DNA of 64,000 nucleotides from Elusimicrobiota bacterium (GCA_044221725.1 JBGAON010000003.1:32001-96000), one strand, 5' to 3'; counted from the first letter of the stretch, positions 50,217 to 63,826 are shown. Translations and numbers: made by a program. Notes: generated by a model from the letters alone, not told the origin.

Positions 50217-52166
50217 ATGTTTCAGAAGTTGCGGAATTTGGTGTTTGGCAAGCCTCGGGATTTAAACGATCCCCACATTTTCCACCACACGTCGCTTATT
50301 GCGTTTCTCGCCTGGGTGGGCCTGGGCGCTGATGGTCTTTCCTCCTCCGCCTACGGCCCCGATGAAGCGTACCGCGCGCTCGGATCACACACGCACCTGG
50401 CCATCTTTCTCGTTGCCATGACGGCCATCACAATTCTGGTCATCTCGTTTGCTTATTCGAATCTCATCGAATATTTTCCCGGGGGCGGCGGAGGATATCT
50501 TGTCGCGTCGAAATTGCTCGGCCCGAAAGCCGGTGTGACATCCGGATGCGCACTCTTGATCGATTATGTGCTCACAATTTCGGTGTCGGTTGCGTCCGGT
50601 TGCGATGCGTTGTGGTCGTTTCTTCCGGCGCATTGGGCGCCTTACAAATTGACCGTCGAGTTTGGCGTGCTCGTCTTCCTTATTATTCTCAACATGCGCG
50701 GCGTAAAAGAGTCGGTGACATTCCTAGCGCCAATTTTCATGCTTTTTATTCTCGCCCATCTTTTCATGATTCTTTACGCGGTGGGCAGTCATTTTTCGGG
50801 ACTTCCGGCTGTTTTTCACGACGCGCATGTCGATTTCCATGCATCCGTCTCCACGCTGGGGTTGGCGCCCGTCGCGTTTATTTTGTTGCGGGCTTACTCG
50901 ATGGGCGGTGGAACCTATACCGGTATTGAAGCGGTTTCAAACGGTGTCGCGATGCTGCGCGAACCGCGTGTCCAAACCGGCAAGCGCACGATGTTCCTTA
51001 TGGCCACCTCTTTGGCATTCACGGCGGCCGGCATTTTGTTTGGTTATTTGCTCACGAACGCGATGCCGATCGAAGGCAAGACGATGAACGCGGTGCTTCT
51101 CGAAAATCTCTACGGTGGATGGGGCATCGGAAAATATTTGATTATTGGGACGCTCATTACCGAAGCGGCGCTTCTGTTCGTTGCCGCGCAAGCCGGATTT
51201 TTGGACGGCCCTCGTGTGCTCTCAAACATGGCGCTCGATTCGTGGATGCCGCACCGCTTTTCGCAGCTGTCGGATCGGCTCGTTACGAAAAACGGCATTG
51301 TGCTGATGGGCTTGGCCGCGATGGGCACGCTCATGTACACACGCGGAAATATTTCGCTTTTGGTCGTCATGTACTCGATCAACGTGTTCCTCACGTTCAC
51401 GTTGACCGAGCTCGGCATGGTGCGCCATTGGATCCTCGAGAGAGGTCGTGAGCCAAAGTGGAAAACGCTGCTCACGATTCACGGGGCCGGGCTCGTCATA
51501 TGTGCGAGCATTCTGTGCATTACGCTGTACGAAAAATTTTCCGAGGGCGGCTGGGTGACAACCGCGATTACGGCGCTCACGATTGTTATTTGTTTCCTGA
51601 TCAAAGCGCATTACCGGCATGTTCAGCAGGGCTTTAAGCATCTCGATGATGTTTTAAAAGATGTTGAGTTGCCGGAGCTCCCCGATATCAAAAAGCACCC
51701 GCTAAACAAGGCCGCGCGCACGGCGGTGTTGCCGGTTCAGTCGTTTTCAGGGTTTGGTATGCATCATTTGCTGGCCATTCTCAAATGGTTTCCGGGCGAC
51801 TTTGAAAACGTGATCTTTGTTTCGGTGGGCGTGATTGATTCCGGAAGTTTTAAAGGTGTGGATGAAATCAAAGCGCTCGAAGCGCGCGTGCGCGGCGATT
51901 TGGAAAAATACGTGCGCTCCGCCGCCCAATACGGGATCAAAGCGGACTATCGAATGGAAATGGCCACCGAAGCCGTCCCGACCGTGGAAAAAATCTGTCG
52001 CAGTGTTGCGAAGGAGTTCCCGCGCGCCATGGTTTTCACCGGAAAACTCATTTTCCGTAAAGAACATTGGTACCAACGAATTCTCCACAACGAAACCGCT
52101 TTGTCGTTGCAGCGCCGGTTGCATTTGGACGGAATTCCGACGATGGTGCTGCCGATTCGCGCTTAA
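50217..52166 (+). CDS. KimA/YdaO-like APC-superfamily K+ transporter
   Basis: DGLSSSAYGPDE, GGGGY, DYVLT and TGIEAVSNG motifs; cytoplasmic C-terminal domain with LHN.TA. Confidence 0.85.
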   Translation: MFQKLRNLVFGKPRDLNDPHIFHHTSLIAFLAWVGLGADGLSSSAYGPDEAYRALGSHTHLAIFLVAMTAITILVISFAYSNLIEYFPGGGGGYLVASKLLGPKAGVTSGCALLIDYVLTISVSVASGCDALWSFLPAHWAPYKLTVEFGVLVFLIILNMRGVKESVTFLAPIFMLFILAHLFMILYAVGSHFSGLPAVFHDAHVDFHASVSTLGLAPVAFILLRAYSMGGGTYTGIEAVSNGVAMLREPRVQTGKRTMFLMATSLAFTAAGILFGYLLTNAMPIEGKTMNAVLLENLYGGWGIGKYLIIGTLITEAALLFVAAQAGFLDGPRVLSNMALDSWMPHRFSQLSDRLVTKNGIVLMGLAAMGTLMYTRGNISLLVVMYSINVFLTFTLTELGMVRHWILERGREPKWKTLLTIHGAGLVICASILCITLYEKFSEGGWVTTAITALTIVICFLIKAHYRHVQQGFKHLDDVLKDVELPELPDIKKHPLNKAARTAVLPVQSFSGFGMHHLLAILKWFPGDFENVIFVSVGVIDSGSFKGVDEIKALEARVRGDLEKYVRSAAQYGIKADYRMEMATEAVPTVEKICRSVAKEFPRAMVFTGKLIFRKEHWYQRILHNETALSLQRRLHLDGIPTMVLPIRA

Positions 52167-57105: not shown

Positions 57106-57882
57106 CTAGTACGCATGGTACATTCCCGCCTGTTTTACCAAACGCAACGGAACGTGAAAGAGCTCCGTGAGATTCGTTTCGGTAAGAATTTCTTTTTTGG
57201 GGCCATCCGCGAAGATTCTTCCATTTTTTAGCAACACGATGCGCTCGATTTCCGGAATGATATCCGATAAGTGATGCGTGACAAGCACGATGCCAATTCC
57301 GGCACGCGCCAGTTTTCGCAGCGTCTTTTTAACCAAAACCTGGCCTTGCAGGTCCAAACTGTTCATCGGTTCATCGAAAACAATAAGCCGCGGCGTGTGA
57401 ATGAGGGCTCGCGCGATGAGAACACGGCGCGCCTCGCCGGAGGAAATGTGAGCGAAGGTTTCGTTCTCGAGATGCGTGAGCCCCAACCACGTCAAGATTT
57501 GTTTTGCTTGTTTTAGCATCGCGGGCGTCACACGATTGTTTTTCCAAAGGCCAACGCTTGAGAAAAAACCAGAAAGAACCGCTTCGAGCGCCGTTACGTT
57601 TTTCGGAAAAAGCGCCTGCCAGTCGTACGAAACAATGCCAAGCTGCGAGCGCAACGCGAAAACGTCCCACGTTTTTGAACCAAACAGCGTCACGCTACCG
57701 CCCGTCGGATAAAGTTCACGCGTCATTGCCTTGATCAATGTGGATTTGCCGCTGCCGTTCGCACCCACGATGGCCACCTGCTCCCGCATCCCAATTTTTA
57801 GAGTGACGTCGGTCAAAACATCGCGTTCGCCGCGATGAACGGTGACGTTTTGGAACCAAACCGCAAATTTCTTTGTTGGCAT
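57106..57882 (-). CDS. ABC transporter ATP-binding protein (ModF/YlmA-like)
   Basis: GANGSGKST, ISSGE, FDEP and VTHH motifs. Confidence 0.88.
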   Translation of the reverse strand: MPTKKFAVWFQNVTVHRGERDVLTDVTLKIGMREQVAIVGANGSGKSTLIKAMTRELYPTGGSVTLFGSKTWDVFALRSQLGIVSYDWQALFPKNVTALEAVLSGFFSSVGLWKNNRVTPAMLKQAKQILTWLGLTHLENETFAHISSGEARRVLIARALIHTPRLIVFDEPMNSLDLQGQVLVKKTLRKLARAGIGIVLVTHHLSDIIPEIERIVLLKNGRIFADGPKKEILTETNLTELFHVPLRLVKQAGMYHAY

Positions 57883-57934
57883 CGTTAACGATCATCGCAT
57901 TTTCCGAAAAAAATTTTTTACCATAGTGATTCCA

Positions 57935-59050
57935 ATGAAAAATAAGAAAAGAATTTCGACGCCGTATTATCTGATCGACGAATCACGACTTCTGAAAAAT
58001 CTAAAAAAGATTGAGCTGCTGCGGGAGCGCTCCGGTGCCAAATGTGTTTTGGCGCTCAAATGTTTCTCGACGTGGGCCGTTTTTGATCTCATGCGAAAAT
58101 ACATGGACGGAACAACATCGAGCTCGCTGTACGAGGCGAAGCTCGGGGCTGAAAAATTCGGAAAGGAAGTTCACGCGTACAGTGTTGCGTGGTCGGCAAA
58201 CGAAATAGAATCCGTTCGTAAATTCGCCACGAAAGTTATTTTTAATTCGACGTCGCAGCTGCGTCAGTTCCTGCCGCGCGTGAAGCATTTGCCGATCGGT
58301 ATGCGCGTAAATCCGGGTGTCAGTCATTCGGGTTTTGATTTGGCGGATCCATCTCGAAAATTTTGCCGTCTTGGCGCGACAGAAATGAAAGATATTCAAT
58401 CCGTCATTTCGAATTTGTCCGGACTCATGTTTCACTGCAACTGTGAAAACGACAGTTTTGAGAGTTTTTCGCGGATCCTCGACACAATCGAGCGAAAATT
58501 CGGAAGTTTGCTTAAGAATTTAAGCTGGGTTAGTCTCGGTGGAGGAATCTATTTCACGAAAGAGAACTTTTTTTTTGATAAGTTCTGCTCGCGAATTTTA
58601 GAGTTTTCTCGACGGTACAACGTGCAAGTGTATTTCGAACCCGGCGAAGCGTCGATCACGCAGTCGGGTTTTCTTGTGACCAGCGTTTTGGATATCGTGA
58701 AGAACAAAAAAGATATCGCGATCGTGGACGCGGCTGTTGAAACGCACATGTTGGATTTGCTGATTTACAACGCGAACGCGAAAGTTGAGTTGCCGAAAAA
58801 TGGTCGGTACGCATACATGATTGCGGGAAGAACGTGTTTGGCCGGTGATGTGTTCGGCACCTACAATTTTCCAGAGAAACTGAAGGTGGGCGACCGCGTG
58901 ACGTTTTCAGACGCAGCGGGTTACACCATGGTGAAAAAGAATTGGTTCAACGGTGTTGCGATGCCATCGATTGTGGTGCGGCGCCTGAATGGTCGAGTCG
59001 AGCTGATTCGAGAATTTACGTACAGCGATTTCTTGCATAACTTGTCGTGA
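57935..59050 (+). CDS. nspC: Carboxy(nor)spermidine decarboxylase
   Basis: TPYYLID, LALKCF (PLP Lys), SLGGG, EPGE, TCLAGD and WFNG motifs. Confidence 0.92.
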   Translation: MKNKKRISTPYYLIDESRLLKNLKKIELLRERSGAKCVLALKCFSTWAVFDLMRKYMDGTTSSSLYEAKLGAEKFGKEVHAYSVAWSANEIESVRKFATKVIFNSTSQLRQFLPRVKHLPIGMRVNPGVSHSGFDLADPSRKFCRLGATEMKDIQSVISNLSGLMFHCNCENDSFESFSRILDTIERKFGSLLKNLSWVSLGGGIYFTKENFFFDKFCSRILEFSRRYNVQVYFEPGEASITQSGFLVTSVLDIVKNKKDIAIVDAAVETHMLDLLIYNANAKVELPKNGRYAYMIAGRTCLAGDVFGTYNFPEKLKVGDRVTFSDAAGYTMVKKNWFNGVAMPSIVVRRLNGRVELIREFTYSDFLHNLS

Positions 59051-59066
59051 TTGGGAGGAAGGTGAA

Positions 59067-60317
59067 ATGAAAAAGAATGTTCTGATTATTGGGGCGGGCG
59101 GCGTTGCCCATGTGACAGCGCACAAGTGCGCTCAGAATAACGATATTCTTGGCGACATTTGCATCGCTTCGCGTACGATCGAGAAGTGCGACAGAATTAT
59201 TGAGAGCATCAAACGCAAGAAGAACCTAAAAGATAAATCGAAAAAACTTTACTCCCGCAAGATCGACGCAATGAATGTGTCGGCCACCGTTGAGCTCATC
59301 AAAGAAACGAAATCCGAAATCGTCATTAATCTTGGGACCGCCTTCTTGAACATGTCCGTGCTCGAGGCTTGCATCGAAGCCGGCGTTGCGTACATGGACA
59401 CGGCCATTCATGAGGATCCGGACAAAGTTTGTGAGGATCCGCCATGGTACGCGAACCACGAGTGGAAGCGCGCCGCGCGCTGCAAAGCCAAAGGAGTTGC
59501 CGCAATTCTTGGTGTTGGATTTGACCCCGGCGTCGTGAACGCTTACGCGGCGTACGCTCAGAAAAATCATTTCGACAAAATTGACACGATCGATATCTTG
59601 GACGTAAACGCCGGTTCGCACGGTCGCTACTTTGCGACGAACTTTGATCCGGAAATAAACTTTCGGGAATTTAAGAAAGTGTGGTCGTACATCGATCGGC
59701 AATGGGTGGAAGACGCCGTTCACTCGAAAAAATGGATTTATGATTTTCCGGTCGTTGGAAAACAACCGGTGTATCTCACCGGGCATGACGAGCTGCATTC
59801 GCTGTCGAAAAACATCGATGCAAACAGCATTCGTTTCTGGATGGGATTCGGCGATCATTACATCAATGTATTCAATGTGCTGAAAAATGTTGGCATGCTC
59901 TCCGAGATTCCGGTAAAGCTCAGCGACGGCACCGAAGTCGTGCCGCTCAAGATAATGAAAGCGATTTTGCCCGATCCGGGTTCGCTGGCGCCGGGCTACA
60001 AAGGCTACACGTGTATTGGGGACCTCGTGAAAGGAACCAAAGACGGAAAATACCGTGAAGTGTTTTATTACAACACGTGCGATCACGCCGCTTGTTACAA
60101 AGAAGTGGAATCACAAGCGATCTCGTACACCGCCGGTGTTCCGCCTGTTGCTGCAGCTATTTTGCTCGCGCAAGGTGTTTGGGATCCAAAGAAAATGGTG
60201 AATGTGGAGGAATTGGATCCGGAACCATTCTTGAAGCTGCTCGATAACATGGGACTTCCGATGGTGATCGAAGACAAAACGGAGCCGAAAAAATCGACGG
60301 CGAAGGTGCTTGCGTAA
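59067..60317 (+). CDS. Carboxy(nor)spermidine dehydrogenase (saccharopine dehydrogenase family)
   Basis: GAGGVA, GFDPG, ATNFDPEINFRE and SYTAGVP motifs; follows nspC. Confidence 0.9.
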   Translation: MKKNVLIIGAGGVAHVTAHKCAQNNDILGDICIASRTIEKCDRIIESIKRKKNLKDKSKKLYSRKIDAMNVSATVELIKETKSEIVINLGTAFLNMSVLEACIEAGVAYMDTAIHEDPDKVCEDPPWYANHEWKRAARCKAKGVAAILGVGFDPGVVNAYAAYAQKNHFDKIDTIDILDVNAGSHGRYFATNFDPEINFREFKKVWSYIDRQWVEDAVHSKKWIYDFPVVGKQPVYLTGHDELHSLSKNIDANSIRFWMGFGDHYINVFNVLKNVGMLSEIPVKLSDGTEVVPLKIMKAILPDPGSLAPGYKGYTCIGDLVKGTKDGKYREVFYYNTCDHAACYKEVESQAISYTAGVPPVAAAILLAQGVWDPKKMVNVEELDPEPFLKLLDNMGLPMVIEDKTEPKKSTAKVLA

Positions 60318-60378
60318 CAGGCCCCAAGAAATTATTTCTTGACAGTCTAAAGAAGTTCGTGTAACTAAGCGGTGTTCT

Positions 60379-60440
60379 TCGGCGGAATTTGTGTCAACTT
60401 GCCCAGCCGATCTCCAAGGAGAAAATGGGGCTAAAGCGAC
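60379..60440 (+). ncRNA. SAM-II/SAM-V-like riboswitch aptamer 1 (transcriptional)
   Basis: P1 UCGGC/GCCGA; L1 GAAUUU; P2b UUGCCCA pairing with UGG-G-GCUAA; P2a GUC/GAC. Confidence 0.7.
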
Positions 60441-60452
60441 GATGAGATTTTT

Positions 60453-60493
60453 AACCCGTGTCAGCTTATGTGTTGACACGGGTTTTGTTTTTT
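60453..60493 (+). terminator. Intrinsic terminator between the two aptamers
   Basis: AACCCGTGTCAGC-ttatgt-GTTGACACGGGTT followed by a T-tract. Confidence 0.88.
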
Positions 60494-60509
60494 CCGGCAA
60501 CAAAAAACA

Positions 60510-60572
60510 TGGCGGGAATTTAGATTCCAAATTGCCCCAGCCAGCGAAAGCGAATAGGGAGCTAAATAGGAG
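60510..60572 (+). ncRNA. SAM-II/SAM-V-like riboswitch aptamer 2 (translational)
   Basis: P1 UGGC/GCCA; L1 GAAUUU; P2b UUGCCCC pairing with GGG-A-GCUAA; P2a UUCC pairing with the SD GGAG. Confidence 0.7.
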
Positions 60573-60578
60573 ACGTAT

Positions 60579-61961
60579 ATGAAGAAGGGCGTTCTATTGG
60601 TCCTGCTTGGGGCCGCCGCGATTCCGCGCGGTGCTGTTTTCGCGGAAGATGCCCCAGCCTCCGCCACCGTTCAAACCATTGAGCAGCGTTTATCGATTCT
60701 CGAACGCAAATACGAAATCGATAAAGAAGACGCCGCCAACAAAGCGAAAGACGCTTCGTTCGTTACAAGCGGAAATGATGGTTTCCAAATTAAATCTACC
60801 GACGGCAACTCGTATCTGCGAATTTCGGGGTTGTTCCAAGCCGATTACCGAGACTATCTCGCGGACCATGGTTCCACGCAGCTCAATGATCAGTTTTTTC
60901 TTCGTCGCGTGCGCCCGACGTTCGAAGGTATCGTGAACAAATATATTGGGTTTCGAATCACGCCGGACTTTGCGAATGGTGGAGGAACCACCTCCGGTCC
61001 GACGTCAACCTTGTTGCCCGACGCTTACGTGGATTTGTTGTACGTGAACGGCGCGAAGGCGCGTGTGGGAAAGTTCAAACCGCCGGTGGGATTGGAAAAT
61101 CTGCAGTCGGATCCGGTCATGCCGTTTGTCGAGCGTTCGCTGGTTACGAATCTCGTGCCGATTCGCGATACCGGCGTTCAGTTGAGCGGTGATTTCGTGG
61201 GCGGTGCGATTAGTTATCAGGCGGCGGTTGTAAACGGCGTAGCGGATGCCGCGTACAGTGAGAGTGACACGAACGATGCAAAAGATTATGAAGGGCGCCT
61301 CTTCTTGCAGCCGTTCAAGCAATCGGCCTCCGAGTGGATCAATGGCTTAGGGTTTGGTGTCGCCGGGAGTGTGGGAGATCAATTTGGGAATGCGACCACG
61401 TCCGGATTAACCGCGGGGTACCGCACGGAAGGTCAACAAAACTTCTTCACGTATCAGACGGGCGCGTTTGCGAGCGGACAAAGAAAACGGTTCTCGCCCC
61501 AGGGGCACTGGTATTTCTCCCATGTGGGACTTTTGGCGGAATACGTAGCGTCGTCCCAAGAGGTAACGCGCGTGACCACATCAACGGCGACCGCATCGAT
61601 TACGAACCACGCGTGGCAAGTAACCGGTTCGTACGTGCTGACCGGAGAACGCCGGTCGTACGGTGGTGTGAAACCGCGGAAGAACTTCGATCCAAAAACG
61701 CACGGATGGGGTGCCTTTGAAGTCGTCGGTCGCTACGCGGTTTTTAAAGTTGACGATGAAGCGTTCACGAAAGGGTTCGCGTCCGTAGCGACGTCTGCCA
61801 AGAAAGCAAAATCTTGGGGAGCCGGCCTCAACTGGTATGTGAATAACAACCTGCGGCTGGCGTCGAATTACGTGGTCACTTCGTTCGATGGCGGGGCCGC
61901 GAGCGGAAACGATCGTCCCGCAGAAAAAGTCGTGTTAAGTCGTGTTCAAGTGACATTCTAA
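60579..61961 (+). CDS. OprO/OprP-family anion-selective porin (probably sulfate)
   Basis: Signal peptide; LRRVRP, GKFKPPVGLE, RD.G and GLNWY motifs; C-terminal F; first gene of the sulfate operon. Confidence 0.85.
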   Translation: MKKGVLLVLLGAAAIPRGAVFAEDAPASATVQTIEQRLSILERKYEIDKEDAANKAKDASFVTSGNDGFQIKSTDGNSYLRISGLFQADYRDYLADHGSTQLNDQFFLRRVRPTFEGIVNKYIGFRITPDFANGGGTTSGPTSTLLPDAYVDLLYVNGAKARVGKFKPPVGLENLQSDPVMPFVERSLVTNLVPIRDTGVQLSGDFVGGAISYQAAVVNGVADAAYSESDTNDAKDYEGRLFLQPFKQSASEWINGLGFGVAGSVGDQFGNATTSGLTAGYRTEGQQNFFTYQTGAFASGQRKRFSPQGHWYFSHVGLLAEYVASSQEVTRVTTSTATASITNHAWQVTGSYVLTGERRSYGGVKPRKNFDPKTHGWGAFEVVGRYAVFKVDDEAFTKGFASVATSAKKAKSWGAGLNWYVNNNLRLASNYVVTSFDGGAASGNDRPAEKVVLSRVQVTF

Positions 61962-61988: not shown

Positions 61989-62993
61989 ATGAAGATCAGA
62001 AAAATTTTTTTAGTAACGGTTGCCTCGCTGTTCGTGTCGGTTTCGGTATTCCCAAAAGACGTGACGTTGTTAAATGTGTCGTACGATCCGACGCGGGAGC
62101 TGTATCAAGATTTTAATAAGGCGTTCGCGGATTATTGGAAAACAAAAACCAGTGACAATGTCACTGTTAATCAGTCGCACGGTGGGTCGGGCAAGCAAGC
62201 GCGCGCCGTGATCGATGGGCTCGATGCCGACGTGGTGACGCTTGCGCTCGCGTACGACATCGATGCGATCGCCGAGAAAGGGCAGTTGCTTGCGAAAGAT
62301 TGGCAGACGCGTCTTCCGGCCAACAGTTCTCCGTACACGTCAACGATCGTGTTTCTTGTTCGCAAAGGAAATCCAAAACGGATTAAAGATTGGGATGATT
62401 TGGTGAAACCCGGTGTGGACGTGATCACGCCAAATCCCAAGACTTCCGGTGGCGCGCGTTGGAATTATTTGGCGGCGTGGGGGTACGCGCTAAAAAAATG
62501 GAACAACGACGAAGCGAAAGCCAAAGAGTTCGTAACGAATCTTTATAAGAACGTGCCCGTTCTCGACTCGGGCGCTCGCGGTGCGACCGTGACATTTATC
62601 GAGCGCGGAATTGGCGACGTGGCAATTTCTTGGGAAAACGAAGCGTTTCTTGCGACGAACCAGTTTGGAAAAGGCGATTTCCAGATTGTGGTGCCGTCCG
62701 TTTCAATTCTAGCGGAGCCGCCCGTTGCTGTTGTTGAAAAAGTCACCGCACGTCGCGGGACAACCGCTGTTGCGCAGGCGTATGTTCAATATCTTTACAC
62801 CGATGAAGGGCAAGAGATCGCGGCGAAGAATTATTATCGCCCGCGTAACGAAAAGGTGGCGGCGAAGTACGCGGCGACGTTTCCAAAATTAACCTTGTTT
62901 GATATCTCGTTGTTCGGCGGTTGGAAAAAAGCGCAGAAGACGCATTTCGCCGATGGAGGCGTGTTTGACCAGATTTATCAACCCGGAAAATAA
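61989..62993 (+). CDS. sbp: Sulfate ABC transporter substrate-binding protein
   Basis: [22 protein letters not shown] and NPKTSGGAR motifs. Confidence 0.96.
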
Positions 62994-63826
62994 TGTTTTC
63001 GCGTAAAGACCGCGGCGTTTTGCCAGGTTTTGGTGTGACGATGGGCACCACGCTGACTCTGTTGAGTCTGGTTGTGCTCCTTCCGCTTTCCACGTTGTTC
63101 GTAAAAGCGGCAACGTTGAGCCGCACCGAAATCATCGCGCTCGTGACATCGCCGCGCGTGGTTGCGTCGCTGCGTTTGACTTTCGGAATTTCACTGATGG
63201 GAGCGTGTATCAATGCTCTGTTCGGTGTTGTTGTCGCATGGGTGCTCGTGCGTTATTCGTTTCCCGGACGAAAAATTGTGGACGGCATCGTCGATCTGCC
63301 ATTCGCATTGCCCACCGCGGTGGCCGGTATCACGCTAACAACGCTTTATTCGCCGCACGGTTGGATCGGAAAACCATTGGCGGATCTCGGCATAAAAGTC
63401 GCTTACACGCCACTCGGAATCCTCGTCGCGATGACATTCATTGGGCTTCCGTTTGTGGTGCGCACGGTTCAACCCGTCCTCGAAGACTTGGATCGGGATA
63501 TGGAAGAAGCGGCGGCCACGCTTGGTGCGTCGCGTTGGCACACGATTCACGCGGTCATATTGCCGACGCTTTATCCGTCGATCCTCACGGGATTTACGCT
63601 CGCGTTTGCGCGGGCGCTGGGCGAATACGGATCCGTGGTTTTTATTTCGGGCAATATGCCGCTCAAAACGGAGGTTACACCGCTCCTCATCATGACGAAA
63701 CTGGAGCAGTTTGATTACGTGGGAGCTTCTACGATTGCCGTGCTTATGCTTTTGATTTCTTTTTCACTTATTCTTGTGATCAACGTTCTGCAGTGGTGGA
63801 CGCGAAAACGTCAGGGGATGGCCTAA
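62993..63826 (+). CDS. cysT: Sulfate ABC transporter permease CysT
   Basis: LPGFG, DLPFALPTAVAG and EEAAATLGA motifs. Confidence 0.95.
   Translation: MFSRKDRGVLPGFGVTMGTTLTLLSLVVLLPLSTLFVKAATLSRTEIIALVTSPRVVASLRLTFGISLMGACINALFGVVVAWVLVRYSFPGRKIVDGIVDLPFALPTAVAGITLTTLYSPHGWIGKPLADLGIKVAYTPLGILVAMTFIGLPFVVRTVQPVLEDLDRDMEEAAATLGASRWHTIHAVILPTLYPSILTGFTLAFARALGEYGSVVFISGNMPLKTEVTPLLIMTKLEQFDYVGASTIAVLMLLISFSLILVINVLQWWTRKRQGMA

Follow-up and report, generated by a model that had tools for sequence, protein, structure and literature searches.

Why does the leader of a sulfate uptake operon in an Elusimicrobiota bacterium hold the same pseudoknot twice, and what might the two copies sense and control? 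The window analysed here (the whole stretch of 64,000 nucleotides, GCA_044221725.1 JBGAON010000003.1:32001-96000) has an intergenic leader at 60318-60578, with a carboxynorspermidine synthase-like gene on one side and a gene of the porin O/P family on the other. The original prediction placed in it tandem SAM-II/SAM-V-like riboswitches, one transcriptional and one translational. We consider it probable that the leader acts as a SAM-OFF switch that controls sulfate import at two levels, and that both of its aptamers are copies of a single uncatalogued SAM-II/SAM-V type. The leader and the operon are laid out as follows.

60339..60367, plus strand: probable promoter, with a perfect -35 box TTGACA (60339-44) and a weak -10 region
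60379..60440, plus strand: aptamer copy 1, an H-type pseudoknot of the SAM-II/SAM-V type
60379-83 and 60406-10, plus strand: P1 of copy 1, UCGGC with GCCGA
60384-91, plus strand: third strand of copy 1, with UUU at 60388-90
60393-95 and 60438-40, plus strand: P2a of copy 1, GUC with GAC
60399-404 and 60428-35, plus strand: P2b of copy 1, UUGCCC with GG (60428-29) and GCUAAA (60430-35); the feature table gives the 3' side as 60428-34
60411-22, plus strand: P3 of copy 1, the inserted hairpin
60453..60494, plus strand: intrinsic terminator, a 13-bp stem (60453-84) followed by a U-rich tail; -22.4 kcal/mol
60491..60518, plus strand: linker hairpin, -7.9 kcal/mol, part of the minimum-energy fold of 60485-60590
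60510..60572, plus strand: aptamer copy 2, the same pseudoknot type
60510-13 and 60540-43, plus strand: P1 of copy 2, UGGC with GCCA
60519-21, plus strand: UUU of copy 2
60525-28 and 60569-72, plus strand: P2a of copy 2, UUCC with GGAG
60532-38 and 60557-65, plus strand: P2b of copy 2
60568..60573, plus strand: Shine-Dalgarno (SD) sequence AGGAGA, overlapped by P2a of copy 2
60579..61961, plus strand: gene of the porin O/P family that opens the operon (PF07396, E 2e-40)
61989..62993, plus strand: sulfate-binding protein Sbp (NF008022, 556 bits, cut-off 288)
62993..63826, plus strand: sulfate permease CysT (TIGR02139, 404 bits, cut-off 246)
past the window end, plus strand: cysW and cysA (TIGR02140 and TIGR00968, over cut-off)

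Every pairing that had been named for two diverged pseudoknots with their own P1 and P2a is present, and both copies show full pairing with compensatory changes; the inserted hairpin of copy 2 has only 2 bp. The proposed tie of copy 1 to a terminator agrees with the position of the 13-bp terminator and its U run between the copies, and the GGAG strand of copy 2 P2a (60569-72) covers the SD, as claimed, 6 nt 5' of the porin ATG at 60579. The sulfate ABC operon expected downstream was also borne out, with Sbp, CysT, cysW and cysA all over their family cut-offs. An EamA-type transporter gene (G000:C5:97726-98577, L284) that scores below its family cut-off lies 3 nt 3' of cysA and may be part of the operon.

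A strict promoter scan found no promoter at the leader. A TTGAC-like word stands 37-44 nt 5' of P1 in 37 of 88 family aptamers, at 41 nt in the window, and transcription would start near 60374. The carboxynorspermidine decarboxylase (over cut-off) and synthase-like genes (57842-60317, plus strand) end 20 nt 5' of the promoter. No terminator was found between this gene pair and the promoter, and transcription could possibly read through from these genes into the leader. The genes upstream of the aptamer leader differ in relatives.

Is the element more than a chance arrangement? A strict motif finds only copies 1 and 2 in the 2.82-Mb genome, and a looser structural descriptor finds the same two sites. 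The looser descriptor also gives 0-3 matches (mean 1.75) per simulated genome in eight simulations, so that a single copy is not significant by this measure and homology has to carry the case. Model R1 was built from 3 sequences and model R2 from 24; the only convincing R2 matches in this genome are copy 1 (47.8 bits) and copy 2 (54.5 bits), both of which were used in building it. At the level of sequence, the element is established by the pairing of copies 133 nt apart together with homologues, and it is a real, well-supported RNA element.

Homologues are numerous. R1 matches occur in 10 of 11 other genomes of the window's taxonomic family, and R2 matches in 39 of 151 genomes of the class, of which a few of the weakest are false. 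Around a Gemmatimonadota genome R2 matches occur in 8 of 101 genomes: the central genome, five real cases, one that is not real (L293) and one left out as flagged unpublished. A pattern scan of a genome collection gave 69 loci, 52 of which hold model matches; the remaining 17 have no R2 match and were treated as chance. The titles of the 52 read Elusimicrobia or Elusimicrobiota in 17 cases, FCPU426 in 14, Firestonebacteria in 2 and Gemmatimonadota in 2, and the other 17 are unclassified ("bacterium" or, in 6 cases, "proteobacterium"). The host is thus probably non-alphaproteobacterial, as had been supposed. From genomes and metagenome contigs 144 unique copies were parsed; the first parsed set had 88 copies, and the set used for expression platforms had 140, with two incomplete rows left out and one chance row included. 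That row is a viral-scan match (L069, 24.9 bits), which was dropped from the 144. None of the 43 matches of the viral scan has both P1 and P2 on reading. A loose pattern run on 401 genomes of the phylum matched 210, with similar numbers in controls, and was swamped by chance. The R1 matches L121, L195, L199, L200 and L206 and other weak ones are coding or unrelated sequence, as is L293. A metagenome pattern aimed at SD-type copies returned eight terminator copies and one SD copy. Double and triple arrays occur, and the genomes G431, G433 and G434 hold 9, 8 and 10 copies.

The homologues, aligned as leaders from which new models were built, show the covariation that had been proposed as a check, in P1, P2a and P2b. 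The covariation score is 0.264 compared with 0.122 in shuffles (0 of 500 as high), and all slid controls are lower; the alignment (MAFFT, 24 hand-picked copies of similar length) was not fitted to structure, and relatedness inflates such scores. In it 87% of cells pair, and both partners vary in 9 of 17 pairs. P1 occurs as CGGC, CGGU, UGGC and ACGC, each with a matching partner. At the fourth position of P2b, 129 of 140 copies pair C with G and 6 pair G with C; at the second position of P2a, 7 copies have G-C, and window copy 1 and L243 have U-A. Inserts of as much as about 80 nt are tolerated in loop 3. These observations bear on whether the repeats could be DNA or RNA sites bound by a protein, or else a dispersed repeat, and not a metabolite sensor at all. 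Sequence conservation is high, tandem copies are multiple and at least one LysR-type regulator is encoded in each of five genomes tested. However, the pseudoknot covaries, the copies are placed strand-specifically before sulfur genes, they are complementary to a terminator arm, their loops accept the long inserts and they do not have the form of a palindromic operator. We regard a protein site or dispersed repeat as extremely unlikely and treat the element as an aptamer.

Why have the standard models not found it? The expectation that they would miss both copies was correct, as cmsearch-type Rfam scans with RF00521 and RF01826 gave no match at the locus. At the gathering threshold neither copy scored with any Rfam model, and at E 10 no SAM family appeared in 60000-60800. 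RF00521 (SAM-II, gathering 36 bits) did not reach its threshold at the locus, which was also not listed in an own-genome search with 150 of 524 candidates scored. The same holds for RF01826 (SAM-V, gathering 41 bits; 121 of 121 candidates scored), and RF01726 (SAM-II long loops, 44 bits) gave no match at the locus with 150 of 1176 candidates scored. No Rfam match at gathering level was found in 38 homologue loci (20 + 18). Weak matches to wcaG, anti-hemB and a snoRNA at the locus are terminator or chance matches. In the accessible riboswitch and noncoding RNA literature no description of the family was found, and supplements or subscription papers could list members. The main text of a 2026 preprint on noncoding families (bioRxiv 10.64898/2026.10.21.760802) does not contain SAM, sulfate, metY, peroxiredoxin or FCPU426 as whole words, and its supplements could list such RNAs.

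Statements taken here from papers cited by PMC number refer to the accessible parts of those papers; PMC10907184, PMC7583470 and PMC12667848 also served the comparison of SAM riboswitches. With SAM-II (RF00521, SAM_alpha; the metA motif, PMC1273637) the family shares an H-type pseudoknot with a UUU third strand, a P1 stem and P2 pseudoknot backed by covariation, a promoter just 5' of P1 and usually a terminator next. Both window copies have the core UUU / UUGC / GCUAAA with P2a in the RF00521 register. The family reads CC-NNC-UUGC opposite GCUAAA-NN-GG, and the RF00521 consensus is CC-GGC-UUGC opposite GCUAAA-gA-GG, which includes the C before UUGC; that C was dropped as a new pocket change. 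Sulfur genes lie downstream, as methionine/SAM or sulfur genes do for SAM-II (the sulfate ABC operon here, metY, metH and cysK in relatives). In contrast to SAM-II, the family has a 4-bp P1 core where SAM-II has 6 bp, a longer purine-rich start of loop 1 (GAGGC is commonest), extra P2b pairs after UUGC, a hairpin in loop 3, which is unstructured in SAM-II, and a P2 internal loop with AAC and GC. The hosts also differ, and the gene set is one of sulfur uptake. The loop-1 word GAUUU of SAM-II is replaced by GAAUUU in the window copies. This had been taken as a signature, but C precedes UUU in 68 of 88 family copies.

With SAM-V (RF01826; PDB 6FZ0, PMC6061858) the family shares a 4-bp P1, a P3 after P1 (variable in length and missing in a few copies), an extended P2 and the same ligand-contacting nucleotides. 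The inserted hairpin and extended P2 that were proposed as variant traits are therefore ordinary features of SAM-V (PMC6061858), and the RF01826 consensus has both the post-P1 hairpin and the longer P2. Copy 2 keeps the A18/A50 opposition (numbering of PMC6061858) and would occlude the SD through P2a as in SAM-V; four other copies have a similar anatomy. Copy 1 and most family copies have C at position 18, with AAC in 126 of 140. The SAM-V consensus CYRUA-UUGUGC / ACUAAAAARG (PMC2704228 supplement) shares the register and differs in the letters of P2, and SAM-V is described as translational, whereas of 140 family copies 117 have a terminator next, 5 overlap an SD and the finder assigned 18 to no class. 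The aligned letters suggest that the P2 core resembles SAM-II and the frame around it SAM-V. Since the score tests of RF00521 and RF01826 failed, the element is filed as working like both and a member of neither, and the family is a new variant of the SAM-II/SAM-V superfamily. Both window copies belong to it, so the tandem is not one SAM-II plus one SAM-V aptamer as originally thought. SAM-II long loops (RF01726, PMC2864571) resemble the family in having a SAM-II core with enlarged loops, but they are listed for Bacteroidetes and marine samples. A metagenome tandem (L246:534-719) consists of a near-canonical SAM-II, a terminator and an SD-type copy; it scores below threshold with RF00521 (24.2 bits) and RF01826 (22.6 bits), its second copy scores 31.2 bits with R2, and these scores point to continuity between the family and the known ones.

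Several variants were seen among the copies. Enlarged loops occur as a two-hairpin insert of 39-60 nt in loop 1 in 13 of 88 copies; 12 of these directly precede a peroxiredoxin gene (L138, L139, L140, L143, L149, L152, L154, L156, L158, L162, L182 and L188), where the insert could possibly provide a second input or a tuned affinity. The position equivalent to U8 is G in L107:85-174, L129:983-1056 and L180:2104-2195; in SAM-V, U8 contacts the adenine-binding U47 (PMC6061858). L173:1347-1473 has GAUAAA; all four are natural pocket variants. A UUGG/CCUAAA sub-variant stands before TPR-repeat proteins in L248, L250 and L251. A divergent copy with the same letters (L249:221-286) lies 5' of a SAM hydroxide adenosyltransferase gene with a hairpin over the SD; no terminator was found for it, and it could act as an ON switch for an enzyme that destroys SAM. 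In most copies the loop-1 word GCUUUA is exactly complementary to UAAAGC in the 3' strand and does not covary with it; GC persists in copies that have A at that position, which leaves an alternative GCUUUA/UAAAGC helix unsupported.

What does the aptamer bind? A riboswitch of the SAM-II or SAM-V class is expected to bind SAM and to reject SAH more than 1000-fold. The pocket positions equivalent to U8/U9/U10, U19-U20-G21 and U47-A50 of SAM-V (PMC6061858) are kept: U9 and U10 in 88 of 88 copies, U8 in 85, GCUAAA in 84 and AAC before UUGC in 84. These counts are partly built in, as the parser required the pocket anchors and four P1 pairs and the search patterns required several anchors. SAM is most likely the ligand, judging from the conservation of every contact position and from members that precede metH, metY and a SAM-cleaving enzyme.

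The downstream genes were surveyed with Pfam in 39 proteins chosen from 66 arrays to cover types, plus 12 more (one repeat), or 50 distinct proteins. The 39 comprise 14 porins O/P, 6 metY-type Cys/Met PLP enzymes, 3 1-Cys peroxiredoxins, 3 binding proteins, 2 DsrE, 2 ExbB, a permease, a nitrite/sulfite reductase, a hexapeptide transferase and 6 without a family. The further 12 comprise 3 MetH-type methyltransferases, 2 TPR proteins and seven single cases: a SAM hydroxide adenosyltransferase, a cysteine synthase-type PLP enzyme, an ABC ATPase, an NMT1-like binding protein, a DUF3034 protein, an enzyme of metY type and the transferase that is the repeat. No metK was found among the 50. The genes form a sulfur-starvation set: porin-sbp-cysTWA, metY, 1-Cys peroxiredoxin, cysK, ExbB and metH. 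Sulfur starvation raises cysAWT, cysND, sbp and lsfA, which encodes a 1-Cys peroxiredoxin, in Pseudomonas aeruginosa (PMC12581299), and by analogy the family's gene set suggests a similar response, where the likeness to LsfA is one of 1-Cys peroxiredoxin class only. The window's genome encodes cysC, cysH, cysM and a NirA-type reductase, and metH and metK were recognised by short signatures. In G434 an island punctuated by aptamers holds genes for peroxiredoxin, cysK, cysE, a family 2A encapsulin with its desulfurase, ExbB, a TolR/ExbD-type protein and a TonB-dependent receptor, and a triple array lies 5' of porin-sbp-cysTWA-cysD-cysN (cysT and cysW read by eye). Islands of this kind, with 9-10 aptamers, triple arrays and encapsulin plus cysteine desulfurase, are present in G434 and G431 (L279-L282), and in G431 a double array lies 5' of an encapsulin-like gene.

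This gene set, which consists of sulfate uptake, cysteine synthesis and antioxidant genes and not SAM synthesis, could also be read as a sign that the fold and the switching are the same but that the ligand is another metabolite of sulfur status, or the pocket is relaxed (SAH, methylthioadenosine, APS/PAPS). The C in place of A before UUU in most copies would fit such a change, ligand-switched variants of the SAM-I, FMN and guanine riboswitches have been reported in the accessible literature, and the genome has a separate SAM-I riboswitch with a terminator (G000:C3:296849-296963, L283, 81.3 bits) before a threonine synthase-like gene, so that two SAM riboswitch folds may coexist in it. However, the sulfonium-sensing U20:A48-U9 triple and the amino-acid-binding A50 (PMC6061858) are kept, both window copies retain A before UUU, and the metH, metY and SAM-cleaving enzyme genes noted above also speak against it. 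We find a changed ligand decidedly unlikely, and SAM is retained as the ligand below.

How would binding be passed on to transcription? The original prediction was an antiterminator between the 5' loop of copy 1 and the 3' arm of the terminator. Two antiterminator helices can be drawn in the window.

60386..60484, plus strand: helix A, 60386-98 paired with the terminator 3' arm 60472-84, enclosing helix B
60434..60467, plus strand: helix B, the aptamer 3' tail 60434-41 paired with the terminator 5' arm and loop 60459-67, with one bulged A

Helix A exists as predicted with 13 of 13 pairs, 3 of them G-U, and is the strongest of 75 family loci, but it is not family-wide: over the 75 terminator loci its mean is -6.6 kcal/mol compared with -5.8 for shuffled arms, and it is significant in 7. 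Direct reading shows it in G402 (two loci), G350, G242, G282, G337, G318 and G403, all genomes of the window's taxonomic family; in G403 the GC tail is lost and helix A has 9 bp. The word GUUG in the terminator loop or 3' arm is found in only 9 of 117 terminators. Helix B has a mean of -10.6 kcal/mol compared with -6.6 for shuffled arms and is individually significant in 38 of 75 loci. With arms swapped between loci the value is -10.4 kcal/mol, so the support comes mostly from conservation and not from locus-specific covariation. In the window helix B alone is -6.5 kcal/mol, which is not significant against shuffles (z -1.0) where the family is mostly at -10 to -20, and it is part of the minimum-energy fold of transcripts ending at 60468-72. 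The predicted family-wide antiterminator is the pairing of the aptamer 3' tail with the terminator 5' arm, helix B; helix A is real but largely limited to the window's lineage and nests with it.

The tail itself is informative. Among terminator copies, 111 of 117 retain the GC that follows GCUAAA, and all 5 SD copies, window copy 2 included, lack it; the Fisher value of 2e-6 is overstated as the sequences are related. Where the tail is GCGC, in 7 copies, the P2a 5' strand always contains GC and the downstream sequence GCGC; of the 122 copies with a GCGG tail, 14 have downstream GCGC and 108 CCGC. From these letters the GCGC change was probably one evolutionary event that altered three strands together. 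This is a rare case of an expression platform that is legible from covariation, with one tail serving P2a or the antiterminator and rewritten in copies that act on translation. The switch is therefore directly testable by a few point mutations.

From the sequence, the pairings, the covariation and the gene context we infer the ligand, the direction of switching and the activity of both copies. When SAM is low, P2 of copy 1 would be unlocked and its 3' tail could pair with the emerging 5' arm of the terminator (helix B). In the window's lineage the freed 5' strand would then take the 3' arm (helix A) and polymerase would read through, while copy 2 would leave the SD open. The modelled ON state is likely a double strand exchange in which B forms before A. 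When SAM is high, the ligand would bind the UUU / UUG / CUAAA triplex and hold the tail in P2a so that the terminator forms, and any mRNA that escapes would have the porin SD locked in P2a of copy 2.

Would both levels operate? Termination might be largely independent of ligand, or folding of copy 2 might be blocked by the linker hairpin (60491-60518), and either would leave one level only. The terminator fold (-40.4 kcal/mol) lies 2.5 kcal/mol below the best antiterminated fold without ligand (-37.9 with helix A forced and enclosing B), a comparison in which the pseudoknot and ligand lie outside the folding program. The linker hairpin takes the 5' strand of copy 2 P1 in the minimum-energy fold, and could capture it in the RNA. 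A linker silences one aptamer of a Pelagibacter tandem (PMC11508383), and the metA SAM-II of S. meliloti has a constitutive terminator after it (PMC9373788). On the other hand both copies are fully paired with compensatory changes, helix A is unusually perfect in the window, and the terminator-plus-SD layout recurs 5' of porin genes in G402 and L127. Loss of one level is unlikely on this balance, and the two-level switch remains the preferred reading. RNA contigs at the locus have a depth of 2-5 and give no indication of transcript starts or stops, and one contig of depth 2 crosses the terminator and may be DNA.

The layout as such is already in print, which limits the surprise: 149 SAM-II/SAM-V and 44 SAM-II doublets have been described as bi-mechanism tandems, with aptamer 1 at a terminator and aptamer 2 over the ribosome binding site (PMC9481103). 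Here, by contrast, both aptamers are of one new family, most family tandems are terminator plus terminator, and triples occur; no triple SAM-II is mentioned in the accessible parts of PMC9481103. What makes the unannotated family interesting is its size and reach, its set of sulfur-starvation genes with stacked arrays and a switching mechanism that can be read from sequence. It adds to the SAM-II/SAM-V superfamily a sizeable branch that is invisible to Rfam and mixes traits of both, and it suggests that in some uncultured phyla sulfur-starvation genes are run by one riboswitch used singly, doubly or triply. There is a slim chance that the family is a ligand-switched SAM-II-fold offshoot that senses a metabolite other than SAM and, as master regulator, governs the entire response to sulfur starvation in Elusimicrobiota, FCPU426 and their neighbours. 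If that were true, with uptake, TonB import, cysteine synthesis, peroxiredoxin and encapsulin under its control, stacked RNA switches would do the job that CysB does in Proteobacteria.

The window also holds a c-di-AMP riboswitch (RF00379, 49969-50153, plus strand, 61.3 bits). Directly 3' of it is the gene of a 649-aa transporter of the amino-acid-permease family (50217-52166), which may be a KimA-type potassium transporter.
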